Of a stretch of 64,000 bases of DNA, positions 4,711 to 44,365 are shown one piece after another. This stretch comes from Candidatus Sericytochromatia bacterium (lineage in GTDB: Bacteria; Cyanobacteriota; Sericytochromatia; S15B-MN24; JAQBPE01). The first letter of the stretch is position 1, and every line of letters begins with the position of its first letter. Where the stretch lies: contig JBBAPZ010000004.1 of the NCBI GenBank assembly GCA_040400605.1, positions 1 to 64,000 on the forward strand. The letters run 5' to 3'. Under the pieces are notes generated by a model. It was given only the letters and a program-made list of their open reading frames with translations. It ran no database searches and was not told the origin of the DNA. The translations under genes and the position numbers were made by a program.

Positions 4711-4826
4711 CGATACGGAAGCGCGTTGATGATTGATCAAAAATTGGCTGCTATTCAAAAACAGCAAGTCAGTGCCTGACGTTTTGTTTGCCACGGAAAT
4801 TTTTTCAAAAAACGATGCGTCACTGT
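4711..4826 (+). repeat. dispersed intergenic repeat family, copy 1
   Basis: CGATACGGAAGCGCGTTGATGATTGATCAAAAATTGGCTGCTATTCAA...AAAACGATGCGTCACTGT aligns with the other copies. Confidence 0.75.
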
Positions 4827-4863
4827 AGAATGAAGCCAAGACAATGGCCAAGCAACGGGGGCG

Positions 4864-5679
4864 TCAAAGGTTATTACTGACGGTCGGAAGCGTTCCCGCG
4901 GGCACGGTTTCGTCGTTCTTTGAACGTGTACCAATCGGCGTGACCAACCACTTATCAATCTCATCGTGCACGCGCTGGTTCACCAGCATGGCGGGGTGAA
5001 CAGGGGCTGCTACAGCGATGTTTTTCGCCCAGGGCACGACGCTGGAGTTCGCTGGCACGATCATTGCATCGAAGGGGGTCCACAGCGATAAACAGGGGAT
5101 GGTTTCAAGCAGTGAGGCATAGGAATTCAGGTTCTTCAGAAACGCGCTTCCCGTTCGCATTTCGCGGGGCCCAGGACCGTTGCGGGCATAACCGATCAGG
5201 GTTCCATGATGAGGCGCCGATATACTCACGAAGTGACTTGTCTGCAGAACGCCGCCTAATTCTTGTAAATAATAGCGGCTGACGATTGCGCCCATGCTGA
5301 ATGCCACCAGATTGATTCTGGGAGATTCCGTCTCGCGGCGGATACGATCCACCGCCTCCTTGAGCTGGCGACCCAAAACGGCCAGGCTCGCCGTTCCGTC
5401 ACTCGGAATGAGATCGATTCGATACCGTCGCGTATATCCCCGTCGGGCCAGCGCCTGATCGACGGGAATCATTTTGTCACCGGTATCGAAAATACCAGCT
5501 ACCATCACGACCGGCACCTCGCGCGGCGCCTCAGCGTAAGCTTGACTGCGCAATTTAGGTTTACCCGCGGCCCAGGCCACCTGTTCGGAACGCCCGTCAG
5601 CACCCCCACCGATTTGACCACAGGCAGCCAGCAATGTGATCCCAATGGCACTCCATTCCAACATCCACCGTTTCACCAT
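4864..5679 (-). CDS. alpha/beta-hydrolase lipoprotein (lipase/esterase)
   Basis: Lipobox LLAAC; nucleophile elbow AFSMG; APHHGT; D and H triad candidates (PFDAMI, VHPAM). Confidence 0.9.
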   Translation of the reverse strand: MVKRWMLEWSAIGITLLAACGQIGGGADGRSEQVAWAAGKPKLRSQAYAEAPREVPVVMVAGIFDTGDKMIPVDQALARRGYTRRYRIDLIPSDGTASLAVLGRQLKEAVDRIRRETESPRINLVAFSMGAIVSRYYLQELGGVLQTSHFVSISAPHHGTLIGYARNGPGPREMRTGSAFLKNLNSYASLLETIPCLSLWTPFDAMIVPANSSVVPWAKNIAVAAPVHPAMLVNQRVHDEIDKWLVTPIGTRSKNDETVPAGTLPTVSNNL

Positions 5680-6135
5680 AGCGTGTCCTTCAATGACTCC
5701 CTAATAAGCCGGTTCCACAACGGCAGGCACGCGATCATCGTACACCAAGGCCCAGACCCATACCTTGCGCAGGATCACCAATCAGGACTCGTCACGTCAC
5801 GCTTTTGAAGGTCCTGTCAAAAACCTGTCAGTCGTGGTAACCAGAACGACGATAGTTCCGCGTTACAAGCCCCTGTGCTTTCCGCCCCAGGCTGAGGTGT
5901 TCACCGTAAGCAGACAGAACCAAGCGCCACGCAAGGTATTCCCAATAGCAGTCAGCAAAGGCTTTACGCGGAATACCGGGTGTTTTGACTCGCACGTGGT
6001 ACCCGTTGGTCTGCCGTTACTGTTAATGTAGTTTACAAGGTTAATAGAAAATTAACCAGATTTTTAACAAGATCAGCGTGAAGCCGTCTACAACATTAAA
6101 AAGCTGTTCACAAGAATTGCAGGAGATTATTGATT

Positions 6136-6984
6136 ATGACAAACAAGCGGCTGATCGGTGTGGCCTTGGTGAGTATGTTGGTTTTGAGCGCTTGTGCGGC
6201 GGCGCCCGGAAGCCTGACGGGTGCCGTGGGCAAAGTGGCTGCGCGGCAGGCGGTGGGGGGTGCTGCGTTCGCGCCGACCGTGAGCGTGGTGACTCAAGCG
6301 ACTAACCCGGTTGCCACCCAGGCACTCGTCCCGACGTCGACCTTGGTTTGGTTGGGCTCACAAGCGTTGAGCCACGATGAGATCGCCGAGGATTCGGCCC
6401 GTAGCAATTTCAACCTGAAGACTTTTGCTTTGCTGTCCAATGTGGAACAACCGAAAAGTTTTTCGCGGTCGGGGACTGTGCGCAAAACGGCGACCGGCTT
6501 TGCTTTGGAAGCGTCGAAGGGCCTGTTTAAGTCTCGCGCTGACGTTTTTGTCTTGACTGGCGCCGAGACTGTGATGGCAGATGTTGAGTTGCTGTTAGAC
6601 AAGAAAGCGGTCGTCAAGGGTACGGTGCTGAATCGCACGGTAACAGTTGATACAGCGCGTGGCATTGCCAGTTTGGGATTCTTGTTCAACTGGTTTACCA
6701 AGGGGCGGATTCAAGGGCGTGTGCTTGGCGCGAGCACCCTGGAGCCGATTCCTGCGGTAACGGTATCAGTGAAGAGCGATGCTGGTTTCACTTTCAGCGA
6801 AGTGAGTGATGATGAGGGTGAGTTCACGGTGCCCGGCTTGACCCCGGGCAAGTATACGGTGCGTATGAGCGCAACCGGCTACAAAACGTCGAATGCGTTG
6901 ACCGTGGATGTCGATGCGCGTGAAAAAGTGACGATTGAAGGTCGCCTCACGGCTGCTGACGCAACCCCCCAAACCAATCAGTGA
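6136..6984 (+). CDS. lipoprotein with C-terminal carboxypeptidase regulatory-like domain
   Basis: Lipobox VLSAC; GRIQGRV...SDDEGEFTVPGLTPGKYTVRMSATGY; AGGAG RBS at 6121. Confidence 0.85.
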   Translation: MTNKRLIGVALVSMLVLSACAAAPGSLTGAVGKVAARQAVGGAAFAPTVSVVTQATNPVATQALVPTSTLVWLGSQALSHDEIAEDSARSNFNLKTFALLSNVEQPKSFSRSGTVRKTATGFALEASKGLFKSRADVFVLTGAETVMADVELLLDKKAVVKGTVLNRTVTVDTARGIASLGFLFNWFTKGRIQGRVLGASTLEPIPAVTVSVKSDAGFTFSEVSDDEGEFTVPGLTPGKYTVRMSATGYKTSNALTVDVDAREKVTIEGRLTAADATPQTNQ

Positions 6985-6992
6985 CTCCATAC

Positions 6993-7028
6993 AGCGGCGC
7001 ATCCCTTGGGTGTGCCGCTTTGATTTTT
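6993..7028 (+). terminator. intrinsic terminator
   Basis: AGCGGCGCATCC/GGGTGTGCCGCT stem followed by a T-rich tail. Confidence 0.75.
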
Positions 7029-7332
7029 GTGAGTGCTGTTGTTTGGTCGGCATCCAAACAGTGACGAATGGCTGACTGTCCAGAGCTTTTGCAGTCAATG
7101 TAAAACCAGCGATGAACGCCTGTTCGGCACTTCATAAAATTAGAAAGTGAATGAAGCCTCCGTGGGACGCCTGTTTCAGGGTACCTGGCGTGCAAACTGC
7201 TTCAGATTTTTTTGCGGATTGAATCTTTTTATTGTTCAAGCGATAACTTGGTTTCCAGGATTTTTTGCTGCGAACTGTCGAATACCCGATGAACATAGTC
7301 CTGTGTACAATGCCAGCTAAATATCCGATTAC

Positions 7333-7452
7333 ACAGTAGCGCATCGGTTTCTGTTCAGAACTTGTTTCGCAATCACACGGAAATCAGATTCTCACGTGAC
7401 GCCATTCAACAACAGCCAAAACGTGATCACCAATCAAAGCGTTTTCGTATCA
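7333..7452 (-). repeat. dispersed intergenic repeat family, copy 2
   Basis: Reverse complement GATACGAAAACGCTTTGATTGGTGATCACGTTTTGGCTGTTGTTGAAT...AAGTTCTGAACAGAAACCGATGCGCTACTGT. Confidence 0.8.
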
Positions 7453-7485
7453 CAAGTCTCGCTGTACTGCGTGGCTTGTCAAGCT

Positions 7486-7881
7486 TTATTCGCGTGTAAA
7501 CAGGAAACGTGAGAAAAACGCGCGGTGACGTGCAAACAGTCGATAGGTCCATTGGACGATTGTAAAGACGCCTGGCAGTTGTCCGAGACGAGCGACGGTA
7601 GGATAGCCGCAGGCCTCCAGAATGTATAAAACAGCAGCGCCTTCTTTCAGGACTTCGCCCGTGGCTTTGATGACGTGAACGGAGTGGGCACAGGCTGCGT
7701 AGAGAGCGGGGGTCAAAGGTGGCATTGGTGCTTGTTGGTAAGCCATGAACTGAAAGCGTTCTCCGTGGTCGCGTGCTTGAAACCAGGCAATGCTACGGCG
7801 ACAAAAACCACACTCACCGTCCCATAGCACCCAATCACGCGGTGCAACGGTGACGTCGCTGTTTGTCTCGATGGTTTTCAT
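7486..7881 (-). CDS. DCC1-like thiol-disulfide oxidoreductase (DUF393)
   Basis: N-terminal WDGECGFC (DxxCxxC) motif; C-terminal YRLFARHR. Confidence 0.9.
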   Translation of the reverse strand: MKTIETNSDVTVAPRDWVLWDGECGFCRRSIAWFQARDHGERFQFMAYQQAPMPPLTPALYAACAHSVHVIKATGEVLKEGAAVLYILEACGYPTVARLGQLPGVFTIVQWTYRLFARHRAFFSRFLFTRE

Positions 7882-7972
7882 TGCTTGATCTTCCCTTCAT
7901 ATGACCTTAGAATTTTGGCTGGCGGTCAGCAAGAGAGCAAGGCCCCTGGTTCACCCGAAGGAGCGTGGATAG

Positions 7973-9520: not shown

Positions 9521-9560
9521 ACCAACGGTTGTATTGCGTTGCAAGCGGAGAACAGGACTG

Positions 9561-9667
9561 TAGAGAAACGCCGTGATCGATGATCAGCGTTTCAGCTGGC
9601 AGCGAATACCGACAGTTGGTTCTGCATTGGTCGCGCCAGTTTTGATAAGCAGCCCGTGCGTCACTGT
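9561..9667 (+). repeat. dispersed intergenic repeat family, copy 3 (degenerate)
   Basis: AGAAACGCCGTGATCGATGATCAGCGTTTCAGCTG...CAGTTTTGATAAGCAGCCCGTGCGTCACTGT. Confidence 0.5.
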
Positions 9668-9768
9668 CTGTCGCGGAATGATCGAATAGTTCGTTTAAAG
9701 GCCCTCGCGGTCTTATCAATGAGCAGCCCACGCTAATGATTGGTCTGAAGAGCGGTGCGGGAAGCCCT

Positions 9769-11429: not shown

Positions 11430-11702
11430 GGATACTGAAAGGAGTCGATCCGTGATCAAAGTTTGACTGTTGTTGAATAACACCACGTGAGGCCCTGGTT
11501 TGGATTCATCAATTTCACCGATCAGGCGCCAACCATTTCAGAACAAGCCGAACAGGCAGGCGAACCGATTTCGGGTGTTACAGGCGGCTTGGTCGCATAA
11601 AACATTTAACGACCAATCAGTCAGTGTGATGGATAGGCCTGATTTTTTGAGTCTGCCACACAGGTTTTGAACAGAACCCGATGCATCTCTATATAAGCAA
11701 CG
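11430..11702 (+). repeat. dispersed intergenic repeat family, copy 4 (left half 11430-11500, right half 11631-11702)
   Basis: GTGATCAAAGTTTGACTGTTGTTGAATAACACCACGTGAG and CAGGTTTTGAACAGAACCCGATGC match copies 2 and 5. Confidence 0.8.
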
Positions 11703-15369: not shown

Positions 15370-15480
15370 CGTTACATGGGGGCGCGTTGTGTGGTGATCA
15401 AATTTTGAATGTTATTCAATCGATAGCGCCTGATGGTTTTGAGTCGGCTACACGCGTTTTGAACAGAAAACGATGGGTCA
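15370..15480 (+). repeat. dispersed intergenic repeat family, copy 5
   Basis: GCGCGTTGTGTGGTGATCAAATTTTGAATGTTATTCAAT...GCGTTTTGAACAGAAAACGATG. Confidence 0.8.
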
Positions 15481-15798
15481 AGGGATATTCGGTGTGATTG
15501 GGGATGATGCACGGGATAGGTTACCGGTTCAGTTAGTGATTCTGCCTTGTTATAAAAGCTTGTTATAAAAGCGGCGTCATCGCCGCATTGTTCAAAAGAA
15601 TTCAACGCGACAGTTGTGGGTGCAGCCATTTGGCGGGGAACGAAGCGAACCAAGCGTGACGGACCATATCCCGAGGTGAAGTTTTTCGTTGTGTGTGGGT
15701 TGAGAGTGAGGCGAAACGGGGAACAATGGCTATGGATCTTTTTGGGGTGTGGCAATCACATCGGGTGATTGGCGCGTTCAAGACAGGCGGGCGACGGC

Positions 15799-19622: not shown

Positions 19623-19654
19623 TGCGTTTGCGTAAAACATTGACACACGATGGT

Positions 19655-19853
19655 CGATATAAAAACGCTTTGACTGGTGCCTAAATCTTCTCTGTTTTGA
19701 GTCAGAGCAGGTGCGTGCGTGATGTTTTTGCCTCTGCCATGTCCAACCGCGTTGAGTGTTAAGCAAGGATTGGCTCTTATTCAATAACAGCCAATCCTTG
19801 CTCAATGTTTTTCGTTTGCGACCCAAGTTTTTAACCCAAACCGATGCGTCACC
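19655..19853 (+). repeat. dispersed intergenic repeat family, copy 6 (contains a near-perfect 41-bp palindrome)
   Basis: CGATATAAAAACGCTTTGACTGGTG...TTGGCTCTTATTCAATAACAGCCAA...AAGTTTTTAACCCAAACCGATGCGTCAC. Confidence 0.75.
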
Positions 19854-19880
19854 TTAGCGTTGGCTGGTTGTGTTCGACCG

Positions 19881-23059: not shown

Positions 23060-23158
23060 CAATGCACCACTGGTTATCTGTGTCCGAACAGCGGTTCCAT
23101 CATCAGATATTGAACAACAGTCAGGATTTTATTCACCAATCAACGCGTTTCTGTATCG
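23060..23158 (-). repeat. dispersed intergenic repeat family, copy 7
   Basis: Reverse complement CGATACAGAAACGCGTTGATTGGTGAATAAAATCCTGACTGTTGTTCAAT. Confidence 0.75.
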
Positions 23159-23195
23159 TTGCACGCGACCGGAAATTGTGGAAAGGACAGCTAGA

Positions 23196-27370: not shown

Positions 27371-27451
27371 ATGGCGCATTCATGCGAGTTGCGCGCTAAC
27401 GGGTATTTGACAGGGCGCGGCGAACAATCCTGTAAAGCAAGCGCAGCCGTA

Positions 27452-28078
27452 TTATCGGAGGGCATCCGTCATCAGGGCGTGGACGGTGTCGATGCGTGCC
27501 TGCTCAGGGGCCAGACACGCCAAAAATCGGATACGGACAGGCGATCGCCACGCCATCGGCCACTTGCGCATCGCTGGCCCGCCACCCAAACTGAAAAAAC
27601 TCCCGTAAAGACCGTCCAACACCACCACGACCGTCGGAACCGGACAATTCTGCAAGATGCGTTCGAAGCCGGGTCTCAGTTCCAACGGATAGCCATCCCG
27701 GGTCAGTTTGCCTTCCGGAAACACGCAAATCCACGCACCCGCTTCGAAGGCCGCCGTCACACGCGTAAAGGCCTCTTCCCGTACCGCACGATCCTCTTTG
27801 CCTGTGAGAATGGGGATGACACGGGCCATCTTCAAAAACGGTCTGAATGCGCGGATGTCATAATAGCGTTTGTGGATCACAAACTGCGGTAGCATCTTGA
27901 GCGCGTGGCTCAAAAATATCCAGTCAATCAAACTCACATGATTGGATAAAATCAGCACCGGACCGTTTTCCGGAAGACAAGCTTGTCCCTCCACCTGCAC
28001 CCGGTAAAGTAATCGCGCGACAACCGAGAGCACGCCTTGTATTGCACGCGCCACAGAGGGTAAACGCCTCGGGGTCAT
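27452..28078 (-). CDS. plsC: 1-acyl-sn-glycerol-3-phosphate acyltransferase family protein
   Basis: NHVSLID (HX4D) and FPEGK motifs. Confidence 0.85.
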   Translation of the reverse strand: MTPRRLPSVARAIQGVLSVVARLLYRVQVEGQACLPENGPVLILSNHVSLIDWIFLSHALKMLPQFVIHKRYYDIRAFRPFLKMARVIPILTGKEDRAVREEAFTRVTAAFEAGAWICVFPEGKLTRDGYPLELRPGFERILQNCPVPTVVVVLDGLYGSFFSLGGGPAMRKWPMAWRSPVRIRFLACLAPEQARIDTVHALMTDALR

Positions 28079-29154: not shown

Positions 29155-29821
29155 TCCCAAACCACCCAGTCAAAAGAGTCGCCCAACACGCAACGGAACC
29201 CTCGGTTTCGCGAAACAGACAACAACCATCTGATCATGACGCAAGGGTTAGTGGATCAAAACCAAGTGCCACAACCTGCACAACGACAACGAACAATCCG
29301 CTAATCTGATACCAGGAAAGCCATCCGCCGAAACCATTTTAAATCAAAAAGCCTCAGAACCGGTCGCTGTATCAGGTCAAACCATCGACCGCTTTGACCC
29401 GATGTAGCGACCCAATGAGTATCACCCTGAGCAACTGTCAGTCTTGACTGTCACCGCACGCGCTTTAGAATACACCATCTCGGGCTTAATGTGTGCTTAA
29501 CGCGCCCTGGTAACAATGGCGCAGCGCGCCCAACATACGAATCACGACAACCGATGTTCAGCCTTGAATTGTTGCCGTTTACTGTTGCGATATCGTGTAT
29601 GTCGCCTGGTTCTGTTCGTGTACTTCCCACAGTGACTACAGCCACGTTTGTTGGTGCCGTCATCGTCGTTCTGACCGGCAGGCTTTCCGAACCTCAATCG
29701 ACGGCCAAGCAATTGTTACAAGAATGGGTGTATTCAGGTCAAATGGTTATCACCCTTTACAATATTCCAAGATCTGTCGGGTTTCGGGATGTGTGTCACG
29801 TCGGTTTGGAGGGTTGGTTCC

Positions 29822-31144: not shown

Positions 31145-32581
31145 TTAATTGATTTCCCCTACTGTGGAATTTTTTTTGATCAACACGCGGTCTAATTTTC
31201 CATTTCCCAAACGCGGGAGGTCGTCAACAATATGGATACGATCCGGACATTTGAATGCAGCCAGGTGTTGCGTCAGCCACGCCCGCAAGGCAGCCTCGCC
31301 CGCGAACACATTTGTCACGCCAAGCCACGCCACCGGCCGTTGGCCCCACCGATGATGCGCGATGCCAACAACCGCCGCTTCCCGAACGCCCGGAAAGGTC
31401 CGCAATACGCGCTCGACCTCTGCGGGATAAATGTTTTCACCACCGGAGACGATGAGATCATCGCGCCTCGCGTGCACAACGAGGTTGCCGGCCTGATCCA
31501 GGTGTCCAAGATCGCCCGTGATTAACCAACCGCTTTGCGGGGCTTCGCCCAGATAACCAGCAAAGACGCCCGGTCCCTCGATGGCAATCAATCCCGCTGT
31601 TTCCGCCTGTTGCACCGCGCCTGCTTCATTCACGATGCGTACGGCGGTACTGGGCAGGGCACAACCACTGTGACGCAGTGCCTGACCCCGTTCGGAAAGT
31701 TTGGCGATGGTGACTGCCGCGCACGCTTCGGTGAGGCCATAGCTTGGGAGCGCGAAGGGACAGCGTGCCAGCAAGGCAGGATCGACCGCCGCGCCTCCCA
31801 CCAATACCACGCGTAATAACGGTGGCCAGGGGCGATCGCCTGTGGCATCCACCAAATCCTGCAACATCGTCGGAACGATCGACGCAACCGTGACGGCTTG
31901 CTGGTGCCACCCCGCCAGCACTTCGGTCGCATCGAAACGCTCGGCCATCACAAATGCCGCGCGCGCCAACAGACACCGAAAGACGATGCTTAACCCACCC
32001 ACGTGATACAAGGGGATACCAAGCCACCAGCGATCGCCTGCGCCCAAAGCCAGCTGCCCATTCACGGCTCGCGCTGCACGCACAGCCGTTGCAACCGGAA
32101 TCCGCGCAATCTTGGGTCGTCCCGTTGTTCCAGACGTCGCAAGCCAAATTTCAGGCGCCCCCATCTTTGCCAATTTGGCTTGAGTCCCCAAGCGCTGCAA
32201 ACCAGGTGGGTCACCGGGGAAGGTCCACTGCCAGTGCGCACTCGCACGCATCAAGACATCCGTGCATTCCGCTTCAGTCCACCGCGTGGAAAGGGCGAGG
32301 GTGTGGAGTCCATGCCGATGGCACGCCAACAAGGCGGCCACCCAATCCACGCCATTGGGCCCTTTGAGTGCCACGACCTCACCTGAACTCACCCCTTGCG
32401 CAACCAGGTGTCGATAAAACGTCTCAATGCGTTCATACAAAGCCCCAGCCGTCAGCGGGTTGCCTTGTGGGTCAATCATCAGAACCTGTGACGGGTCGGA
32501 CGCAGCCAACGCGTGGATGTGGTCAGCCAGCGTCAATGAGTCCATTTTTGTCGAGTCACTGTGGTTGGATGGGGTTAGCAT
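31145..32581 (-). CDS. menE: o-succinylbenzoate--CoA ligase
   Basis: TSGTTGRPK, PLYHVGG, SYGLTE, TGDLG and SGGENIYP; operon context. Confidence 0.92.
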   Translation of the reverse strand: MLTPSNHSDSTKMDSLTLADHIHALAASDPSQVLMIDPQGNPLTAGALYERIETFYRHLVAQGVSSGEVVALKGPNGVDWVAALLACHRHGLHTLALSTRWTEAECTDVLMRASAHWQWTFPGDPPGLQRLGTQAKLAKMGAPEIWLATSGTTGRPKIARIPVATAVRAARAVNGQLALGAGDRWWLGIPLYHVGGLSIVFRCLLARAAFVMAERFDATEVLAGWHQQAVTVASIVPTMLQDLVDATGDRPWPPLLRVVLVGGAAVDPALLARCPFALPSYGLTEACAAVTIAKLSERGQALRHSGCALPSTAVRIVNEAGAVQQAETAGLIAIEGPGVFAGYLGEAPQSGWLITGDLGHLDQAGNLVVHARRDDLIVSGGENIYPAEVERVLRTFPGVREAAVVGIAHHRWGQRPVAWLGVTNVFAGEAALRAWLTQHLAAFKCPDRIHIVDDLPRLGNGKLDRVLIKKNSTVGEIN

Positions 32582-33705
32582 GTCGCTGCCTCCGGGCGCC
32601 AAGTGGCTAAATCCGCAGGCAGGTGATTCACACCGAGACCGTACCCCTTAGTCGGGGTCAAGACTGGCCCCTGAGCGGTTAACGGTGGATTTGGCCACGT
32701 ATCATTCAGCCACGCGGTTGTGCCCAAGCCGCAGGGTGCCGGATGCTCCGTCGTGCTCAGTGCGTGCAAGATTCCCAGCGACGCGATGCCGCGATCCAGC
32801 GCCGAGGTCATGACAACGGTAGTATGGTTGGCTTGACACGCCCGCACAATCGCCAAGGCGCGCAAGAGGCCGCCGTGCACGCCCGGCTTGAGCACGAGTG
32901 CCGTCACGCCCGCTTGGATGAGGCGTTGGGGAGCATCGGCTCCGGCGCCCAAGGCTTCATCCGCGGCAACTGGCACACCCGAGGCTTCCTGCACGATGCG
33001 CAGGCCTTCAAAGTCGGTTGCCGCCACCGGCTGTTCGACGTAAGCGATGTCATAGGGTGCGAAGCGTTTGAGGTTGGCGATCGCATCGGGACGCGACCAC
33101 GTCCCATTGGCGTCCAGCCGCAGCCGCGCACAAGGCCCCAATACTTGACGCAAACTGGCAACCCGCGCCACGTCCTCCTCATTGGAGAGATACCCCACCT
33201 TCAGTTTGAAGCATTTAAAACCGTCTTTGGCATACGCGCGTGCCACCGTGCTCAGTTCGTCCGGGGTGTTTCCTGCAAGCAATGCATTCATGGTCACAGG
33301 CGCTGGCTGGACGGCACCCAATAAACGATACAACGGGACACCTTCCGCTTTGGCGCAATAATCCAGCAAGGCCAGTTCGAGGCCGGCCCAAAGGGCTGGG
33401 GAAACCCCGGCTTGGATGCCAAAAACCTGTTGACAGGCCTTCGACCATTCATCCACGTTCGTGAACCCTGGCCACGCCGGGAGGTCAAAGGTCCGTGAGG
33501 CAAGCGTGTTCAAAGCTTCCTGGCATTGGGAGAACGACTCTGAACCCCACGGGGGCAAAGGGGTCACTTCACCCAGTCCGCTCAGGCCTGAGCGATCCCT
33601 GAGGGCAATCCACCACCCCTCACGCGTGTGCCAGGTTTGCCCCGCCGTGCGCAAGGGCTGTTTAAATGACACGTGGTAAGGCAAATGGTGGCAAACGAGG
33701 CGCAT
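32575..33705 (-). CDS. menC: o-succinylbenzoate synthase
   Basis: Enolase superfamily KLKVG, RLDAN, EQP, ADE and LKP; start overlaps the menA stop (TGATG). Confidence 0.92.
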   Translation of the reverse strand: MRLVCHHLPYHVSFKQPLRTAGQTWHTREGWWIALRDRSGLSGLGEVTPLPPWGSESFSQCQEALNTLASRTFDLPAWPGFTNVDEWSKACQQVFGIQAGVSPALWAGLELALLDYCAKAEGVPLYRLLGAVQPAPVTMNALLAGNTPDELSTVARAYAKDGFKCFKLKVGYLSNEEDVARVASLRQVLGPCARLRLDANGTWSRPDAIANLKRFAPYDIAYVEQPVAATDFEGLRIVQEASGVPVAADEALGAGADAPQRLIQAGVTALVLKPGVHGGLLRALAIVRACQANHTTVVMTSALDRGIASLGILHALSTTEHPAPCGLGTTAWLNDTWPNPPLTAQGPVLTPTKGYGLGVNHLPADLATWRPEAATC

Positions 33706-34583
33706 CACAACGCGACCCCCAAGGCCAACAGGCTCCCGGCAACCAGTGTCAGGCGCGCCGTTTGACCGAGTGCCTGATTGAGGCGCGGTCCGTCGATGGG
33801 CGCAAACACCGCTTGTGTGGGGGCGATGGTGAGCGGTATAGCAACCAACACAAGCAAGGCTTTGGCATCCAGCAAGCCAGCCGCCACCAGGGCGCAGGGA
33901 ATGGCAAAGCCACTGGTTATCAACGTGCCATAGAGGAGGCGTCCGAAGCGAACGCCAAAGCGCACGACCAGGGTGCGCTTGCCGCAATCCGCGTCGCTGT
34001 GGTGATCCCGCAAATTGTTGACGAGCATGATCGCAGCCACCCACAAACCCACAGGACACGATAACCCCAGCGTCAGGGGCGTGATGGCAACCAGTTGCGC
34101 CTGCAAGGTGCCAAGTACGGCGATCGGACCGAAAAACGCGAAAGCACATACTTCGCCCAACCCACGATAAGCCAACTTGAATGGGGTCATCGTGTAGGCG
34201 ATGGCTGTTAGCATTGCAACAAGCCCGATGATCAAAATGGGATATCCCCCTTGCGCGATGAGGTAGACACCGCAGCCCGCCGCCAAAACCAGGGTCCAGG
34301 CAGTGGCCTTGATGACAGCCTGCGGGGAGGCGAGCCCTGCCTGGGTCACCCGCACGGGACCCAGGCGTTCGTGCGTGTCCGCACCTTGCCGCCAGTCGAA
34401 GTAATCGTTGGCGAAGTTGGCGGCAATTTGCAGCAACACGGCGCATAGCAGGGCGCAAATCACAACTGTGGGGTTGAGTGCGCCGAGGTCTGCGGCGATC
34501 GCCCCCCCCAGCAAAACAGGCACCACCGCGGCACTCAGTGTTCGCGGCCGGGCAGCTTGCACCCAAACACCAATCCCTGTCAT
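33705..34583 (-). CDS. menA: 1,4-dihydroxy-2-naphthoate polyprenyltransferase
   Basis: AARPRTL, NDYFD...GAD, NNLRD and GKRTL. Confidence 0.95.
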   Translation of the reverse strand: MTGIGVWVQAARPRTLSAAVVPVLLGGAIAADLGALNPTVVICALLCAVLLQIAANFANDYFDWRQGADTHERLGPVRVTQAGLASPQAVIKATAWTLVLAAGCGVYLIAQGGYPILIIGLVAMLTAIAYTMTPFKLAYRGLGEVCAFAFFGPIAVLGTLQAQLVAITPLTLGLSCPVGLWVAAIMLVNNLRDHHSDADCGKRTLVVRFGVRFGRLLYGTLITSGFAIPCALVAAGLLDAKALLVLVAIPLTIAPTQAVFAPIDGPRLNQALGQTARLTLVAGSLLALGVAL

Positions 34584-34584
34584 C

Positions 34585-35430
34585 CTACGGCCTCCGGGGA
34601 AACCGGGAGAAATTGGGCTTGCGCTTCTGCACATAAGCGTTACGGCCTTCTTGCGCCTCTTCGCTCATGTAATAAAGCAAGGTCGCATTCCCTGCGAGTT
34701 CCTGCAACCCGGCTTGCCCATCCGTACCCGCATTGAAGGCGGACTTGAGACAACGCAAGGCCAAGGGCGACATCTGCAACATCTCCTGACACCACCGAAC
34801 CGTTTCCTCTTCCAGTTCTGCAAGCGGCACCACCGTGTTGACAAGCCCCATGGCCAAGGCCTGTTGCGCATCATACTGCCGACACAAAAACCAGATTTCC
34901 TTGGCTTTTTTGGGACCGACCATTTCTGCGAGGTAACTCGCGCCGAAGCCGCCGTCAAACGAGCCCACCTTGGGGCCGGTCTGGCCAAAGCGTGCGTTGT
35001 CAGCGGCGATCGTCAGATCACACACCACATGCAACACATGCCCGCCACCGATGGCGTAGCCCGCAACCATCGCCACGACCGGCTTCGGCAACGAACGAAT
35101 CTGTTTTTGGAGGTCCAACACATTCAAGCGGGGCACGCCATCCAACCCCACGTATCCGTCATCGCCCCGCACGCGCTGATCCCCACCGGAACAAAAGGCA
35201 TCGGGCCCTTCGCCGGTCAGGATCACGACCCCCACGGATTGATCCTCCCGCGCCTCCACAAACGCATGGCACAACTCCTGTACCGTCAAAGGACGAAAGG
35301 CGTTCCGCACCTGCGGCCGGTTGATCGTAATCTTTGCGATCCCCTCATAGACCTCATAACGGATATCCGTATAGTCGCGCTTTTTCTGCCAAGACGCCGC
35401 CGAACGAATTACCGGACTCTCAACACCCAT
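34585..35430 (-). CDS. menB: 1,4-dihydroxy-2-naphthoyl-CoA synthase
   Basis: [26 protein letters not shown] and GLQELAG. Confidence 0.98.
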
Positions 35431-35447
35431 GGGTCATCCTCCTTTAT

Positions 35448-36287
35448 CTAAATCAGTGAGCCAAGCATCACTTGCGCCAACTCGTTCGGTGTCTCCAAAG
35501 GCACGTTGTGTGCCACCCCGTCCAAAACGTGCAAGCGACTCGCACGCATCTCATCCCGCATGGTTTCGCCCCAGGTCACATAACGCGCATCGTTTGCACC
35601 CACCACGAGTTCGGTTGGCAAAAGACATTGTGACAAGGCAGGGCCGACATACGGTTCACGGCCGGGGCTGAAGGCTGCGATCGCCTGTGCGAGTCCTTCC
35701 GGGTCCTGCGCGAGCCGCAGTTCACGCCACCACGCACGCTGAACATCATCGAGCGATCGCCCCCCATTAAACAGGGCTTGCTCATCCCATTGTGCGATAA
35801 ATCCTGCCATGCCCTCTTCACGCAATAAATCAGCCCAACGACCATCCCGTTCCCGCCGTTCATCCCGTTCTGTGGCACCTGCCACACCCGGCGAAGTCGA
35901 GACGAGCATCAGGTGCCCCACACCCTCGGGATACCCCAAAGCCAGTTGCAGCGCCAGCCTGCCACCCAGTGAGTAACCAATGAGCGTCACAGGCCCCAAA
36001 GCAAGCGTTTGCAGCATCACAGCCAAGGCCTTGGCGACATCTTGAAGCGTGAGACCCTGCTTGGGCCAGGCGCTGCCCCCATGTCCCGGTAAATCAACCC
36101 CAATGTAACACCGGTTTAAAGGCAAGTGCTTCACAACCGGCTCCCACGCAGCCGCTGATCCCGCAAAGCCATGCAACAGAATCCAAACGGGTGCCGATCC
36201 CGCGGCTGCACCCCACCAGCGGGTCTGCAGTCGCAAACCGCACGCTTCCCACACGCCTTGTTGTTGCTTCATCACCTCACCACTCAC
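35448..36287 (-). CDS. menH: SHCHC synthase
   Basis: LHGF, DLPGHG, GYSLGGR and AHNV; between menD and menB. Confidence 0.9.
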   Translation of the reverse strand: MSGEVMKQQQGVWEACGLRLQTRWWGAAAGSAPVWILLHGFAGSAAAWEPVVKHLPLNRCYIGVDLPGHGGSAWPKQGLTLQDVAKALAVMLQTLALGPVTLIGYSLGGRLALQLALGYPEGVGHLMLVSTSPGVAGATERDERRERDGRWADLLREEGMAGFIAQWDEQALFNGGRSLDDVQRAWWRELRLAQDPEGLAQAIAAFSPGREPYVGPALSQCLLPTELVVGANDARYVTWGETMRDEMRASRLHVLDGVAHNVPLETPNELAQVMLGSLI

Positions 36288-38020
36288 ACAAGCACCTCGC
36301 GCGGCAGTGTGTCGACAATCATCTGCAGCCATGCTTTGTGTGCCCGTGCTGTTTGCGCGCGCTTTGTGCACATTTCGATGACCTGGTGGCCAAGTCGCGC
36401 ATCGGCTCTCATCGTGCGCATCACGTCAGCGACTGCATCCGGGGTCGTTACCCGGTGATGGGTGAGCCCGAAGGCTTGGGTCAACAGGCCAAAATTGACT
36501 GCTTGGGGGGTCGCAAACAAGCGTTCGTAACCCGGAACCGCGTTGGCAATGGGCAATTGGTCAAAAATGCCGCCCCCGCCGTTGTTGAGCAAGAGGATGA
36601 CGATTGGGAAAGGGCTGCGGGCGATCGCACTGAGGCCGCCGCAGTCATGCAAAAATGCGATATCCCCCACCACCAACAAAACCAAACGTGCCGACCCCAG
36701 TGCAACCCCGGCGGCTGCCGAGAGTAGGCCATCGATCCCGTTCGCACCCCGAAAAGCCAACGACTGCAGCTGGGCGGTGGCGCTCCCACCGTAGGTCTCA
36801 CCGTGTCGAATCGGCAACGAACTGGCCCAAACAACCCCCATCGGTTCATTCGTGCCGCTCAGGGCTGCGCGCACTGCCGCTGCTTCTTCAGGCATGGCAT
36901 CCGGTGTTTCATGAAGGCAGCGTGTGACATGCTGCTCCGCCAAGCACCACCTGGCGCGCCACCCGTTTGAGCCTTGCCGGGTAACGCCTTGCAAGGCTTG
37001 GGTGAGCGCAGGGACAACCGCCTCCACCGGTCCTGTGACCACAGTGTGGGCGAGCGCTTCGGGATCGCGTCTCTGGCGCGTGTCCTGAAAGAGCACCTGA
37101 TGGGCTTGGGAGCGTGATAGACAGGTTTGGACACCTTTACCCGTGGGCCACGCGCCAAAGCGCAACAAGAGGTCGGCATCCGGCCATTCGGGGTGCCGCG
37201 TGAATGCGTCCGCGTGGGTGATAATGTAGCCTGCACCGTTCTGGGCGCGCACACCCGAGGCCACATCCGCGACCAAGGGGGCATCGAGGACACGGGCCAG
37301 TGCAAGCAAGGTGTCGGCTGAACCGGCATCCGGACCCGCAATGATCAGTGGTCGGGTCGCTTGCGTGCAACGCGCGACCAGCTCGGCGAGTGACGACGCA
37401 TCAGGCACGGCGTGCGCCGCTTTAAGGGTTTTGGTCAGCCAGCTGAGCTGCCACGTTTGCCGACCTTGCGGGGGCAACGTGATCAAGGCCCCATCGGCCC
37501 CCACGTCAAAGGGCACGTTGATGTGCACGGGGCCGTCAACACTGGCCAAGGCTGCCAGCGTGACTTGTCCTGAAGCCGAGCGCAAGGCCCGTTCCGAGGC
37601 GCGGGGCATGGGGAGATCCAAAAAGTGGGCGCATCGGGTGCCGTAAAGGTGAATCTGGTCGATCGTCTGGGCCGCACCCAAGCCGCGCACGGCGCCAGGG
37701 CGGTCGGCGGTGAGCGCAATGAGGGGTACGTGCGTTAACTGCGCTTCGATGATGGCAGGGTAGTAATGGGCGCCTGCCGTGCCCGATGTGCAGATTAAAG
37801 CGACCGGCTTCTGACTGGCTTTGGCGATGCCCAACGCGAAAAATCCCGCGGAGCGTTCATCGACCAAGATACTGGTCCGCAAGTCCGGATGCGCGTCTGC
37901 CACCACCGCAAGCGGCGTTGAGCGGCTGCCGGGGGAGATGACCACGTCTTGAACCCCGGCTGCGGCCAAGGTATCCAGGATCATCCATGCCCATTGTTCG
38001 TTGGGGTTTTCAGCAGACAC
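36284..38020 (-). CDS. menD: SEPHCHC synthase
   Basis: SPGSRSTPL, DERSAGF, CTSGTA, RGANGIDG and GDIAFLHD...NNGGGGIF. Confidence 0.97.
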   Translation of the reverse strand: MSAENPNEQWAWMILDTLAAAGVQDVVISPGSRSTPLAVVADAHPDLRTSILVDERSAGFFALGIAKASQKPVALICTSGTAGAHYYPAIIEAQLTHVPLIALTADRPGAVRGLGAAQTIDQIHLYGTRCAHFLDLPMPRASERALRSASGQVTLAALASVDGPVHINVPFDVGADGALITLPPQGRQTWQLSWLTKTLKAAHAVPDASSLAELVARCTQATRPLIIAGPDAGSADTLLALARVLDAPLVADVASGVRAQNGAGYIITHADAFTRHPEWPDADLLLRFGAWPTGKGVQTCLSRSQAHQVLFQDTRQRRDPEALAHTVVTGPVEAVVPALTQALQGVTRQGSNGWRARWCLAEQHVTRCLHETPDAMPEEAAAVRAALSGTNEPMGVVWASSLPIRHGETYGGSATAQLQSLAFRGANGIDGLLSAAAGVALGSARLVLLVVGDIAFLHDCGGLSAIARSPFPIVILLLNNGGGGIFDQLPIANAVPGYERLFATPQAVNFGLLTQAFGLTHHRVTTPDAVADVMRTMRADARLGHQVIEMCTKRAQTARAHKAWLQMIVDTLPREVLV

Positions 38021-39392
38021 GTGCGATCGCCCCCCACTGTTTCAAAATGCCACGCAAAGCTTCACCCTTGCGCGCCGTTTCGAGCCACTCCGCCTTGGCT
38101 TCAGACCCTGCCACAATGCCTGCGCCCATCATCAACGCGATGCGATCACCCCACACGTGCGCAAAGCGAATGGCCACCCAAAACTGAGCTCCTTCCGCCG
38201 TAACAACCCCAACAGGTGCCCCATACCATCCCCGCGGCGCCGCTTCCGTGTCACGAATCAACTGCAAGGCTGCATCCTTGGGAACGCCACCCAATGCCGG
38301 GGTGGGATGCAGCGCATTGACTATCGCGGCGATATCCGCCGCTTCAGCCAAGCTCGCCTCCAAAGGCGTAAAAAGATGCTGGATATAGGACAGCTTTTTC
38401 ACTTGCGGCTCAGGCGGAAACGACCACGTATCAACCCACGGCCGCAGCACGTCCTGGATGCCATCAATGACCAATTGATGCTCACCCCGCTCCTTGGCAC
38501 TCTCCAGGAGCGCGCGTGCCAATTCGTCATCCGCGCTTGGATCTGTACCGCGACTGGCACTCCCTGCCAAGGCATCCAACTGAAGCCGCAAGCCATCAAA
38601 GCGGCACAGGCGCTCAGGAGTGGCCATGACCACCGCCTGACTTGCTCCCCGCGATAACAGCATTCGGGTCGTGCCGTGAGCCTGTCTGGCAATCACAGCA
38701 AACAGACTGGCCAGATCATCAGGGCTTGCGCTCCGATCAAGCTGCCAGACTTCGTGGCGCGCCATGACCACTTTGGTCAAAGACCCTTCGACGATCGCAG
38801 CCAAAGCCCCTTTCACCTGCGTCTCCCATTGCTCAAACGATACCGCCGTCACCGGCGCATCGTATGCCAAAGCCGCACCAGAACCGACGACGGACCCCGT
38901 ACGCGCCCAATCGTGTAGCGCTCGAGTTTCCGCATCCAAGCAGCGTTCCAACGTCCCGACATCATCCCCCTTCACAACAACAGCCCAGCGCCACGGGCCG
39001 TCTTCCGGGCGTTTCCAGAGAATCCAGCGTGGCAGGATCCACAGGGCCCCCGGCCAGCGATCGCCCAAGGGCGTCACAGAATGATCGGCATCAAATGCCA
39101 TTCCGCCCACGAACCACAACGGCAAGTCACTCCCCACTTGCTGACCCAAGTCACGCAACACGGCCTGCATCGCCATAACGTTTCCAGAACCCCAGCGCCC
39201 ATCTGTGCCAGTTTGCTCGTCTGCAACCCCGAAGCCGACCCAGTGCAAGCCATCCTCGAGGACCAACCGACACTGGGTTTCATCAGGAACGGACCTTGTT
39301 TCCCAAGCAGCGGCGGTCACATCGAACCCACCGGTTCGGACACCGAAACGGTAACCCTGTCCTTGGTTTCGCACTGGCTCTGCCACAACCAC
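38010..39392 (-). CDS. menF: isochorismate synthase
   Basis: KVVMAR, ATPERL, ALAGS, LHPTPALGG, RGWY and GAGIV. Confidence 0.95.
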   Translation of the reverse strand: MVVAEPVRNQGQGYRFGVRTGGFDVTAAAWETRSVPDETQCRLVLEDGLHWVGFGVADEQTGTDGRWGSGNVMAMQAVLRDLGQQVGSDLPLWFVGGMAFDADHSVTPLGDRWPGALWILPRWILWKRPEDGPWRWAVVVKGDDVGTLERCLDAETRALHDWARTGSVVGSGAALAYDAPVTAVSFEQWETQVKGALAAIVEGSLTKVVMARHEVWQLDRSASPDDLASLFAVIARQAHGTTRMLLSRGASQAVVMATPERLCRFDGLRLQLDALAGSASRGTDPSADDELARALLESAKERGEHQLVIDGIQDVLRPWVDTWSFPPEPQVKKLSYIQHLFTPLEASLAEAADIAAIVNALHPTPALGGVPKDAALQLIRDTEAAPRGWYGAPVGVVTAEGAQFWVAIRFAHVWGDRIALMMGAGIVAGSEAKAEWLETARKGEALRGILKQWGAIARVC

Positions 39393-39491: not shown

Positions 39492-39632
39492 CTAACACAG
39501 GGGCGAGGGGCCGTAAAGAAAATTTTTCATTCACTGCGTGGTTTTTGAGTTTTTAATCACAGGGCGAGGGTGTGCGGTCGCAGTGTCTGAGCGGGGCTAT
39601 GTTGCCTGTGAGGGTGTGAAAAGGAGGGGTCG

Positions 39633-41599: not shown

Positions 41600-41626
41600 G
41601 TGGCAGCGCCGTGGAGAGAATGTGAC

Positions 41627-42349: not shown

Positions 42350-42352
42350 GCA

Positions 42353-42408
42353 GTATATACAACCAATCGGTCGAAATGCTTGACATTGTATATACCTGTA
42401 TATACGAT
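42353..42408 (+). promoter_or_regulatory. sigma70 promoter with three GTATATAC palindromic boxes
   Basis: TTGACA(42380)-N17-TACGAT(42403); GTATATAC at 42353, 42388 and 42398. Confidence 0.8.
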
Positions 42409-42440
42409 TAGTCTGTAGGATTTTGTGAAAGGGGTAGCAA

Positions 42441-43244
42441 ATGATGGCTCACGAAGCGACAGTGATTGAAAATGAAGGGGCCGCTGAGGCGCAGACGGCA
42501 GATGCACCGGTTCAGGAGCCTTCGGTATCGGAAGCTGCACCGGTTGAGGGTGAATTGAGTGGTGATGCGGGGCCTGATGGACAAGATGCAGGGCGCAAGG
42601 CGATTTCGTTGCGGATGCCCGTAGAGGATTTGGCGCGTGCAAAGGCGATTGCGGAGAAGCTTGACACGGGTTACCAGACTTTGTTGCTTGAGATCATTCG
42701 GGATGGTCTGGCTGAGCGTGAAGTGTCGCTCAAGATGCAGCAGTTGGTAAATGTGGTTCAGCAGTCTTTGCCTGAGCTGAAATTGATGAGTGCGGAAGAA
42801 CTGGTCAATGCACCGGCGGTGCAGGCGGCGCAAGAGTTTGTGGCCCTCCCGGCCATCAAGGCGGCGCAAGCGTTGATTGAGTCGCCCGCATTCAAGGCAG
42901 CGCAGGATCTCGCGCAGTCTCCTGCCGCAGGCAAAGTGCGTGATTTTGGCACGCAATCTGCCAACAAGGCCGCTGAGGGCTTGGCGAGTTCGCCGATCGG
43001 CAAGGCGGTTCAGGAATTGGTGGAATCCCCCACCATCAAAGCGGCACAGGAGTTGGCCAGCTCAGCCACAGCCAAGTGGGCGGATGACTGGGCGCGCTCT
43101 CCGGGCGGCCGACTCGCCAAGGCGATCGTACAACCGGCCCAGGCGTACGTGGACGAAGCCGTGCAATCACCGCAACTGGCTCAGCTGAATCAGGCCGTGA
43201 AGGACATGCAACAAGCCTTGCGGCAGGCAGGCTTGCTTAAATAG
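42441..43244 (+). CDS. CopG/BrnA-type ribbon-helix-helix domain fused to 12-aa amphipathic repeats
   Basis: RKAISLRMPVEDLARAKAIAEKLDTGYQTLL matches the RHH antitoxin pattern; about 9 LxxSPAxKAAQE repeats. Confidence 0.8.
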   Translation: MMAHEATVIENEGAAEAQTADAPVQEPSVSEAAPVEGELSGDAGPDGQDAGRKAISLRMPVEDLARAKAIAEKLDTGYQTLLLEIIRDGLAEREVSLKMQQLVNVVQQSLPELKLMSAEELVNAPAVQAAQEFVALPAIKAAQALIESPAFKAAQDLAQSPAAGKVRDFGTQSANKAAEGLASSPIGKAVQELVESPTIKAAQELASSATAKWADDWARSPGGRLAKAIVQPAQAYVDEAVQSPQLAQLNQAVKDMQQALRQAGLLK

Positions 43245-43262
43245 TCCCCACATCTCGTTTTC

Positions 43263-43295
43263 AAAAGGGGAGAGCCTGAATGGCGCTCCCCTTTT
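43263..43295 (+). terminator. intrinsic terminator
   Basis: AAAAGGGGAG-AGCC/GGC-GCTCCCCTTTT hairpin. Confidence 0.85.
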
Positions 43296-43738
43296 GCCAT
43301 GGTGCCTCAAGCAGGCGATCCATCGAAACACAAGACGGGCTGTCCCCCTGTGAGCAATCCTTGGCGCCAGCCATTCGCCTTTTCAATGAACAAGAGGTGA
43401 TCACCCCATGCGTGTCTACTTAAGCAACGCGTGTCAAAAATCTCCAAGTTTCATCGTTGGCTTACATTGTCCTCAGGTAGATTACTGGGATCGGCTCAGT
43501 GTTGATTATCTGGAGAAACCCGGAAACGGCTTCTTAAGTGATCACCATGTCTGGTCACCCAAACGACCGCTATCAACTTCTAGGCAAAGCGCACCCAAAA
43601 TAGCATCGCTGGCGGCTTGTTTTCACGCGGTGCCGACCACGCACAAAAAACGCAGAAATATGCGCTCGAAGACGCAAGATTCAAGCTTAATCATACGATA
43701 ACCTCACCACAATATTTAAGTTAAATAAGGAGCATGAC

Positions 43739-44164
43739 ATGACAATGGTGAATGGTTCCGTGTCGCGGGTGGCTTTGCAGAATGCGACGGCGCGTACGCA
43801 GCAGGCCCCGGTGGCGTCACATGGTTTGATGCCGGCAACGGATGTTTTGTGTCGTGATGGGCGGTATCTGAGTGAATATCGTGAAAAGGCGAATGTTCGG
43901 ATTGATGCGGCGAAGGATGAGGCCAGTAAAGCGCGGCGCGTGGTTAATGTGTTGGGGGTATCCGGGGGCGGTTTGGGTGTGACTGGTGGATTGTGGCTGT
44001 GGGGGCAGGGATTGGCTGCGGTGCCGTTGACGGCGTTTCTGGTCGGTGTGGGCTTGACGGGTGCTGCGATTGCGCTTCGCTTGGCGTCCGATGCCAAGGT
44101 CGCGAGTGTCACGCGACGGGCGGAGGCGCAATTTCAGCGTGACCGGCAGGCTTGCGAGTCTTGA
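43739..44164 (+). CDS. hypothetical protein with a hydrophobic Gly-rich hairpin
   Basis: AAGGAG RBS; two adjacent TM-like helices; followed by a hairpin at 44174-44201. Confidence 0.7.
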   Translation: MTMVNGSVSRVALQNATARTQQAPVASHGLMPATDVLCRDGRYLSEYREKANVRIDAAKDEASKARRVVNVLGVSGGGLGVTGGLWLWGQGLAAVPLTAFLVGVGLTGAAIALRLASDAKVASVTRRAEAQFQRDRQACES

Positions 44165-44257
44165 GGCGGATCCAGGGGGCGACGCGCGCGCGGTGCCCCC
44201 TTCAGCTTGCCTCAGTGTCTATTACAAGATTCGTTAGCCCGACTGACGCACACCGCG

Positions 44258-44365
44258 CAGTGATGCATTGGTTCTTGCTCAAAACTTAAGTGACAAACTT
44301 CAAACATGCCCTGATTGAACGGCAGCCAGCGTTCGATTGCCAAGCAAGTCCTCTTTTCGATATTG
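44258..44365 (-). repeat. dispersed intergenic repeat family, copy 8
   Basis: Reverse complement CAATATCGAAAAG...TTGCTTGGCAATCGAACGCTGGCTGCCGTTCAAT...AAGTTTTGAGCAAGAACCAATGCATCACTG. Confidence 0.7.

Follow-up and report, generated by a model that had tools for sequence, protein, structure and literature searches.

In reviews, a target-site duplication of 2-10 bp is part of what defines a bacterial MITE (PMC2229807, PMC11602168). Bacterial MITEs that end in TA are assigned to IS630, and for ISY100 TA duplications are described in 34 of 39 events (PMC2170065). The Spy elements, which are eukaryotic transposons of the PHIS group related to IS5, are described as inserting without duplication, as shown by paralogous as well as orthologous empty sites (PMC4122938).

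The repeat described here (family 1) is an old, decaying MITE family, i.e. a non-autonomous class II element, that is ordinary in kind save for its insertion signature. With a probability of about 0.65, we hold that it inserted without target duplication, centrally in a degenerate 6-bp palindrome (R-Y-B^V-R-Y) and with zero bases added, and that it was spread by a transposase encoded elsewhere. The window, i.e. the whole stretch of 64,000 nucleotides that was analysed, comes from an uncultured, non-photosynthetic relative of the cyanobacteria. An initial annotation had named 8 related repeat positions in it. A profile made of 136 copies, all of them on contigs other than that of the window, matches all 8 as copies of one element, at 37.9-92.8 bits against a best score of 8.3 bits among 30 locally shuffled windows; the reversed genome yielded 1 match, at E 0.32. 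Beyond the positions named, the profile also matches 19739-19857 (a further copy), 11637-11696 (the right half of the copy at 11430) and 7053-7106 (a fragment). The partial piece near 43404, which had been counted with the same repeats, belongs to a separate family (family 7). The features of the window are:

4713..4828, + strand: full copy (87.7 bits), between convergent genes and adjoining a family-5 MITE (4494-4654)
7053..7106, - strand: right-half fragment (21.4 bits, model positions 77-130), absent from the initial annotation
7331..7450, - strand: full copy (92.8 bits)
9560..9669, + strand: full, strongly decayed copy (39.7 bits)
11431..11499, + strand: left half of a copy that a nested insertion has split (37.9 bits, model positions 8-76)
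11502..11636, - strand: family-2 MITE inside the split copy (135 bp, E 2e-28)
11637..11696, + strand: right half of the split copy (49.6 bits, model positions 70-129)
15374..15486, + strand: full copy with decayed ends (69.7 bits)
19653..19739, + strand: left two thirds of a copy (42.8 bits, model positions 5-91), a second copy following directly
19739..19857, + strand: this second, full copy (75.9 bits), its middle locally palindromic
23106..23161, - strand: left third of a copy, left end intact (37.9 bits, model positions 4-58; exact match to the end pattern)
43404..43550, + strand: member of the separate family 7 (~150 bp, CCATG ends, 21 copies)
44255..44360, - strand: copy with decayed left end (49.5 bits, model positions 22-130)

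Family 7 shows visible flanking direct repeats of ~9-10 bp. The piece at 23106-23161 falls within a long ORF; it does so only by the earliest TTG of that ORF, and the Pfam match starts at residue 107, past the repeat. Of 233 copies in the genome, 7 lie within crude ORFs of >=150 aa, and 5 of those 7 are at most 78 bp from the putative start.

The profile has 267 non-overlapping matches in the genome at E<=1 and 240 at E<0.01 (171 with both ends, 29 with the left only, 33 with the right only and 7 with neither), which bears out the earlier guess of hundreds of copies; averaged over the genome there is about 1 copy in 15 kb, and not one per 5-6 kb as had been extrapolated. With an average of 76% identity to the consensus the copies are indeed old and diverged. 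The element measures 119 bp and runs from ATACAG to CTGTAT; short, non-coding and multi-copy, it carries imperfect terminal inverted repeats of 34 bp, in which 24/34 positions pair without gaps, among them 6/6 at the very tips; these had previously gone unseen. Gaps between convergent genes make up 22% of gap length yet contain 79 of 219 copies (36%; p=1.7e-6), and RUP and IS elements are described as likewise enriched there (PMC3049150). A promoter scan of 4300-7500 did no better than shuffles (2 vs 2.3).

The initial annotation had listed a decayed MITE among its candidates, and the ends, the copy number and the nesting support it; the other candidates are not supported. Against a REPIN/RAYT system stands the fact that the one Y1 transposase of this genome is encoded on a contig of 2.7 kb (C105) without a copy. 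That the repeat is a multi-copy structured non-coding RNA or a terminator, as the enrichment between convergent genes and the folding of two young copies (better than shuffles, z -2.3 to -4.9) might suggest, is in our view scarcely credible, given that two copies in the window show no folding advantage over shuffles (z -1.0 to +0.4), that the consensus fold of 20 copies amounts to -0.72 kcal/mol with no covariation gain, that mutual information in the partner columns of the inverted repeat is 0.039 against a background of 0.043, that strand bias is absent, and that neither the window nor any of 6 young copies matched Rfam at E<=1. A repeated site under selection that binds protein or organises the chromosome is very improbable too. 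Its appeal lies in the presence of copies on nearly all large contigs, at 3-13 per 100 kb, and in the TTGAT-N5-ATCAA and repeated TTTTGA motifs of the consensus, but conservation is flat (most columns 0.6-0.9) between sharply marked ends, other MITEs have broken into copies and themselves harbour copies, there is no orientation bias (42 vs 51), three contigs of 36-62 kb carry no copy, and the sequence model matched 1 of 46 other genomes of the class, that one being a spurious AT-rich match.

As a family, the repeat is ordinary, being one of about ten MITE families that make up 2.1% of the genome, and the insertion signature matters more. Family 2 (134 bp, 121 copies) has target duplications of about 9-10 bp. 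Family-2 elements lie within family-1 copies, and family-1 copies lie within members of families 1, 2, 5, 7 and 10. A sister family (family 3; 112 bp, 7 copies, 89.5% identical to its consensus) has the same ATACAG ends as family 1, and its copy at C18:2299-2410 is cleanly absent from contigs of a relative that is 3-4% diverged (found in 3 of 4 public runs examined, from 3 studies, the fourth run having yielded short pieces only). The evidence for insertion thus consists of 15 nested cases and one empty orthologous site, the latter for family 3; none was seen for family 1 within the 19.9 kb compared. Contigs of the relative do not span the family-1 copy at C18:6561-6690. Two columns in a C_AT context are mixed G/T, namely column 113 of family 1 and column 117 of family 5.

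Among the 44 copies with both ends intact, direct repeats of 2-9 bp were in no excess over shuffled pairing, and in the positive control, family 2, flank identity was about 60% over 7-10 bp. Family 1 therefore appears to lack the 2-10 bp target-site duplication; its absence had been noticed from the start, rightly, and is the one unusual feature of the family. Outside 161 intact ends the adjoining base is T in 42%, G in 39%, C in 16% and A in 4%, the base at -2 is a pyrimidine in 94%, and A is the rarest base at both -1 and -2 (3-4%). The flanks fall into two classes, CG (preceded by a purine in 46/49) and YT (41/63; p=2e-4). The flank at one end does not depend on that at the other (Fisher p=0.76): T and A stand on both sides in 9/44 copies and neither side is TA in 11/44, as independence predicts. 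Related copies do not share flanks (nearest-neighbour permutation p=0.08-0.78). The length of the empty site equals that of the joined flanks, with nothing added, at the orthologous family-3 site and in 13 of the 15 paralogous cases, for which -2, +2 and +4 were the alternatives, although score margins are small in several of these and the hosts are about 30% diverged. Of 18 nested cases these 15 were retained; one of the others was a strand duplicate, and C5:40413 and C2:5669 were tandem or weak. The base adjoining the joint differs from the host homologues in 63/106 comparisons (59%; 14 cases, comparisons non-independent), against 139/424 (33%) further out, and at +-2 the mismatch is 48%. 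The orthologous family-3 site reads T and G on the two sides of the joint when empty, and the single base that distinguishes filled from empty (G vs C) falls right at the joint (+1).

Zero added bases are also what a TA duplication around a 117-bp element predicts, and hence it is the composition of the flanks that speaks against TA. The family would then be an ordinary IS630-type MITE of the RUP, ERIC and Correia kind, many copies of which have since had their duplicated T altered. RUP and ERIC ends read TA-TAC, as do those of family 1 when T stands outside; the pyrimidine at -2 fits a Y-TA-R target, the net length fits equally well, the C class (16%) could stem from decay of CTA (to C at 33%), TA is the commonest host dinucleotide at the joint in 3/14 paralogous cases, and 24/47 genomes of the class have IS630 transposases. 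We nevertheless regard this explanation as quite improbable. G stands outside 62/161 ends (p=1e-19 when a rate as high as 11% is assumed) and does not rise with age (0.38/0.41/0.37 in young, middle and old thirds), whereas internal T columns have changed to G in 6.5%, T in a CTA context in 2% (n=90), and T or C in a C_AT context in 6% (8/134). No mutational pull to CGAT was found; copies with TA at both termini are few (9/44); in family 3, at about 90% identity, 5/14 ends are not TA; this genome has no DDE_3 match; and the reading is further counted against because ISY100 gave TA duplications in 34/39 events.

Unlikely as well, though deserving more weight, is a MITE that rewrites its joint, with ends that reach into a short target (often Y-TA-R) and with 1-2 outer bases that derive, at each end separately, from the target or from the element or donor (CG), for a net length of zero. 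The raised mismatch at +-1 and +-2, the change of G to C at +1 of the orthologous family-3 site and the two flank classes all speak for it, as does the direction of most changes, to G on the left or to C on the right, on our reading of the list of cases. Insertion preference by itself would raise the mismatch at the joint positions, however, the best host homologue already carries the G and A of the filled site in three nested cases (C11, C17 and C21), and flanks are not common to related copies, which argues against carry-over from a donor; we know of no described mechanism of this kind. Several narrower proposals were rejected. HIP1 targeting with AT duplication is contradicted by the presence of both half-sites in 1/44 copies (about 1 expected) and by the +2 reconstruction, the one in which HIP1 would be restored and which was never best (one tie in 15); drift from TA to CGAT after insertion has no counterpart in internal columns, where an apparent 25% A-to-C in the AT_G context was an artefact of copies with non-consensus neighbours and disappeared with consensus contexts; inheritance of flanks from the donor copy was not seen among related copies; and Tn916-like coupling and a piggyBac-like overhang were ruled out by reasoning from the mirror-image flanks and the frequency of copies with neither side TA.

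A search for the source of the family gave no match in this genome to DDE_3, DDE_Tnp_4, DDE_Tnp_1_6 or DDE_5, and the sequence inspected around 4 DDE_Tnp_1 matches and 1 Y1 match held no such ends. No long element bounded by these ends was found in the assembly, a 94.6% complete draft of 174 contigs in which IS are often missing; an rve match near a left-end fragment proved to be a broken IS3-type gene. The assembly contains no 16S, and the organism was not placed by its RecA. In relatives, blastn found the element in 0/30, and 30 loci around IS630 matches had no inverted end beginning with the same letters. The end patterns stayed at control level in 400 genomes of the phylum (2 vs 3 and 7 vs 11), gave chance matches only in plasmids, and had 0 matches in a genome contig set and 0 in viral contigs; the 7 found in metagenome contigs were all 99.6-100% identical to this genome.

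Insertion without duplication would then have proceeded as follows. A transposase encoded elsewhere, presumably of the DDE type acting in trans and now lost or unassembled, may have bound the two imperfect 34-bp inverted ends and placed the element, probably through a blunt cut, in the middle of R-Y-B^V-R-Y, with half-sites that are mostly RCG or NYT and with no TA duplicated and no bases added. The element would have spread to at least 240 sites, in at least 2 subfamilies, and family 3 probably used the same enzyme. The copies have decayed since, without sign of selection on structure, and those that survived would mostly be the ones where they did least harm, downstream of genes.

The 161 ends and 16 empty sites indicate that TA is not a faithful duplication; if that is true, a bacterial transposase with blunt, footprint-free or joint-rewriting insertion would still be to be found. 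Its TA-like ends might make it pass for IS630, and MITE surveys that build on duplications might miss or misfile it. With the close relative in public runs, the insertion question comes within reach of assembly alone. The literature, as judged at listing level and with subscription journals largely outside, yielded no bacterial MITE said to lack a duplication; since ISfinder lists some IS without direct repeat and journal coverage was partial, a precedent may exist.

SDR5 of Nostoc sits in HIP1 sites. The present host is likewise rich in HIP1, and half-HIP1 flanks (GCGAT and ATCGC) are the commonest end 5-mers, but family 1 does not target HIP1, as the count of both halves above indicates. MaeMITEa-h of Microcystis aeruginosa are similar by description, in that several MITE families make up 1.8% of the genome and the largest has about 240 copies, whereas sizes differ and the host is oxygenic (as described in PMC2779907). 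RUP, ERIC and Correia resemble family 1 in being AT-rich elements of 100-200 bp with terminal inverted repeats, more than 100 intergenic copies and internal insertions; they are described as carrying TA at both termini as target duplication (PMC2229807, PMC3049150), whereas here 9/44 intact copies carry it so, G occurring outside the end as often as T; moreover, they are IS630-type, and a search of this genome gave no IS630 transposase. In invertebrates the target of Spy is AAA^TTT, according to PMC4122938, whereas the target proposed here is the degenerate R-Y-B^V-R-Y in a bacterium; family 1 does not use AAATTT, and TTT, when seen, stands on the wrong side. Both share terminal inverted repeats, mostly non-autonomous copies and insertion at the centre of a 6-bp palindrome without duplication (PMC4122938), which family 1 appears to display, with a caveat on the joint bases; the resemblance would be one of insertion pattern, with no homology claimed. 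Tentatively, and at less than even odds, the family may thus be the footprint of a bacterial inverted-repeat transposase that enters a degenerate palindrome and makes no target duplication (or rewrites the joint) and that drove two MITE families, one still moving after the 3-4% split, as a prokaryotic counterpart of Spy.

Self-comparison of the window yielded only 4 pairs of related segments. An iterated profile search across the draft source assembly (G000, 174 contigs) recovered 267 non-overlapping matches to family 1 at E<=1; 240 matches, with both ends present in 171, lay at E<0.01, and a reversed-genome control returned one match (E 0.32). An independent model, made from 136 copies that all lie on contigs other than the window's, recovered all 8 positions named in the initial annotation, together with three further segments, at 21-93 bits, against a maximum of 8.3 bits on 30 shuffled windows, so that the 8 positions indeed represent one family. 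The earlier guess of hundreds of genomic copies agrees with these counts, although the proposed density of one copy per 5-6 kb was too high for the genome as a whole (about one per 15 kb) and the piece near 43404, initially taken as part of the family, belongs to a different one (family 7). The genome holds about ten repeat families (77 kb, 2.1%), of which the following lie in the window or on contig C18:

1-57: family 8 (13 copies)
4494-4654, 7128-7293 and 27397-27465: family 5 (130 copies)
5908-6044 and 29486-29620: family 6 (92 copies)
11502-11636 and 29195-29310: family 2, a MITE of 134 bp (121 copies, CCAACC/CCATCC ends, target duplications of ~9-10 bp)
43404-43550: family 7, ~150 bp (21 copies, 83% to consensus, CCATG ends, visible direct repeats of 9-10 bp)
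L160:2408-2528, a stretch of C18: family 9 (8 copies, CAGG ends)

Families 5, 6 and 8 cluster in the spacers that hold family 1. A Mutator-like IS, for which terminal C and repeats of 8-9 bp are described in the available part of PMC3942029, or an IS4 element would fit as the source of family 2. Family 9 has a perfect 4-bp YTAR duplication in 5 of the 6 copies shown; the flank of the sixth carries a family-3 insertion, and its flanks mismatch even in the relative introduced below.

The family-1 element measures 119 bp, from an ATACAG start to a CTGTAT finish, with inverted ends that match ungapped at 24 of 34 positions. Identity to the consensus is 57-89% (mean 76%) across the 134 best full copies and reaches 92% between the two most similar; conservation along the element is flat, apart from a handful of bimodal, mutually linked columns (52, 62, 63, 66 and 107) that mark subfamilies. 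One subfamily, shortened by ~20 bp between a pair of internal TTTTGA repeats, has itself been copied several times (C45:1757-1856, C2:144545, C9:2329, C19:17920, C31 and C17:53971). Long ORFs from a crude gene model contain 7 of the 233 copies; the intergenic copies show no orientation bias and are enriched in convergent gaps (79/219, i.e. 36%, versus 22% of gap length; p=1.7e-6), as has been described, and interpreted as parasitism, for RUP and IS elements of pneumococcus in the portion of PMC3049150 available. A truncated copy adjoins an IS3-family element broken by frameshifts and a stop (L193:1330-2340, i.e. C3:190900-191900).

Two of the interpretations offered initially found no support. 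For a multi-copy structured RNA, Rfam gave no match anywhere in the window, and at E<=1 none in 6 young copies either; the consensus structure computed from 20 copies has an energy of -0.72 kcal/mol, and the mutual information of inverted-repeat partner columns is no higher than that of random ones (0.039 versus 0.043). Since two young copies fold better than shuffles (z -2.3 to -4.9) and two window copies do not, the hairpin is a decaying by-product of the inverted ends. As for a repeated chromosome-organising site, searching 46 other genomes in the class for the family gave a single, spurious match, its end patterns occur at control level only in 400 genomes of the phylum, and its metagenome matches stem from the same population as the source genome.

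Evidence of movement comes from 15 copies nested in other repeats, for which uninterrupted host members supply the empty state; conversely, family-2 elements lie inside family-1 copies, among them the one at 11431-11696. Contigs from 4 public runs were aligned to C18:1-19900, and a relative diverged by 3-4% is present in three of these, from three studies. Family-1 copies of this stretch include:

C18:4845-4969: bridged in two of the three runs with the relative
C18:6561-6690: not bridged by contigs of the relative
C18:16729-16855: contigs of the relative enter from both sides

Because it is bridged in two of the relative's runs, the copy at C18:4845-4969 predates the split from the relative, and family 1 is the older. 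Family 3 (7 copies, 89.5% to consensus) shares the ATACAG ends and has a different middle; its copy at C18:2299-2410 is skipped in all three runs, so family 3 was recently mobile, unless the relative lost this copy precisely.

At the joint, flanks joined with zero added bases gave the best host fit in 13 of the 15 nested cases (tested against -2, +2 and +4; margins 0.4-9 score units; one case being family 3), and the orthologous empty site of family 3 likewise has the length of the joined flanks with nothing added. Two readings are compatible with zero net length: either the element spans 119 bp and duplicates nothing, or it spans 117 bp and makes a 2-bp duplication, in which case T must precede the left end and A must follow the right one. 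In the 161 ends that retain 5 or more of the 6 end bases (from 352 ends in 176 copies), the base directly outside is T in 42%, G in 39%, C in 16% and A in 4%; pyrimidines make up 94% at position -2 and purines 75% at -3, with a flat composition from -4 outward. The share of outer G does not rise with copy age (0.38, 0.41, 0.37), and decay from T to G is low (internal T columns, mean 6.5%, maximum 20%; CTA context, 2%; T or C to G in C_AT context, 6%). No direct repeats of 2-9 bp exceed shuffled pairing around family 1, whereas the parallel flank test made the target duplication of family 2 visible, and the orthologous empty site reads TCT/GGC, the slash marking the joint. It follows from these observations that family 1 lacks the defining feature of IS630-type MITEs, TA duplication, which for the IS630 member ISY100 occurred in 34 of 39 events in vitro (PMC2170065, as far as available).

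The bases outside the two ends are mutually independent and are not common to related copies, so they come from the insertion site. They fall in two classes, RCG and NYT, which a single simple target preference does not explain. Half-HIP1 flanks (HIP1 being GCGATCGC) are common; a single copy out of 44 carries the two halves at once, which is the chance expectation. Further points count against a clean joint and for a rewriting of its first one or two bases upon insertion: the first base after the element is C at the filled orthologous site and G at the empty one, and in nested cases the +-1 bases differ from host homologues in 63/106 comparisons (+-2 in 51/106; outer positions 139/424), in our judgement mostly toward CG. 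Target preference accounts for part of this excess, the comparisons are drawn from 14 cases, and such rewriting seems unlikely to us.

HIP1 is also the commonest 8-mer of the genome. It occurs 1554 times (418 per Mb), which exceeds the expectation from base composition 18-fold and that from a second-order model 6.5-fold; it is frequently extended to GGCGATCGCC (477) and coexists with the absence of any detected photosynthetic reaction-centre gene (genome 94.6% complete). Its count lies inside the range given for HIP1 cyanobacteria in the consulted part of PMC4390886 (300-2700 per Mb), whereas its excess is below theirs (55-228-fold). For every CGATCG that lacks G/C flanks there are 2.9 copies of HIP1, compared with 0.6-2.2 in 22 of the order's 26 other genomes, about 0.2 in one genus (g9) and 0.2-0.6 in two families (f5 and f6), many relatives being high-GC, which inflates the ratio. 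Neither the literature searched, as far as covered, nor a term search of the available text of a 2026 HIP1 paper (PMC13756078) linked HIP1 to Sericytochromatia, Vampirovibrionia or Melainabacteria; if real, the excess extends HIP1 beyond oxygenic cyanobacteria. Contigs C20, C24 and C27 (36-62 kb) contain neither HIP1 nor family 1 and may be recently acquired DNA, phage/plasmid or contamination. Expanded protein families comprise 9 paralogues of about 700 aa (C30, C19, C25, C28) and 7 of about 530 aa (C100, C30, C7). Among named homologues, those nearest to a peptidase of the window are three proteins of 'Candidatus Sericytochromatia' (56-59%) and one carrying the label Oscillatoriaceae (63%), which suggests that the host belongs to the Sericytochromatia. 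Two further loci of the window are:

25035-25778, minus strand: orphan N6/N4 DNA methylase gene (PF01555), of interest in view of the abundance of HIP1
31145-39392, minus strand: menaquinone-type operon (chorismate-binding, TPP enzyme, MenC-like and AMP-binding genes)

Family 1 was most likely moved by a DDE transposase supplied in trans, an enzyme that we infer. It would bind the 34-bp ends, excise or copy the element and attach it to opposite phosphates in the middle of R-Y-B^V-R-Y. No cognate transposase was found in the draft assembly, which may have dropped the gene. ISfinder includes some IS entries without direct repeats. As a decayed MITE family 1 is of a known kind, and swarms of comparable size are on record (PMC2779907, PMC10969869 and PMC2229807, each as available to us); it is the odd joint that lifts it above routine, no bacterial MITE described as inserting without duplication having been found in the partial literature searched. 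Although family 1 is not a member of Spy, given that its target differs and that there is no family-1 transposase to compare, its probable insertion without duplication works like that of Spy, which according to the accessible part of PMC4122938 inserts between AAA and TTT with no duplication.
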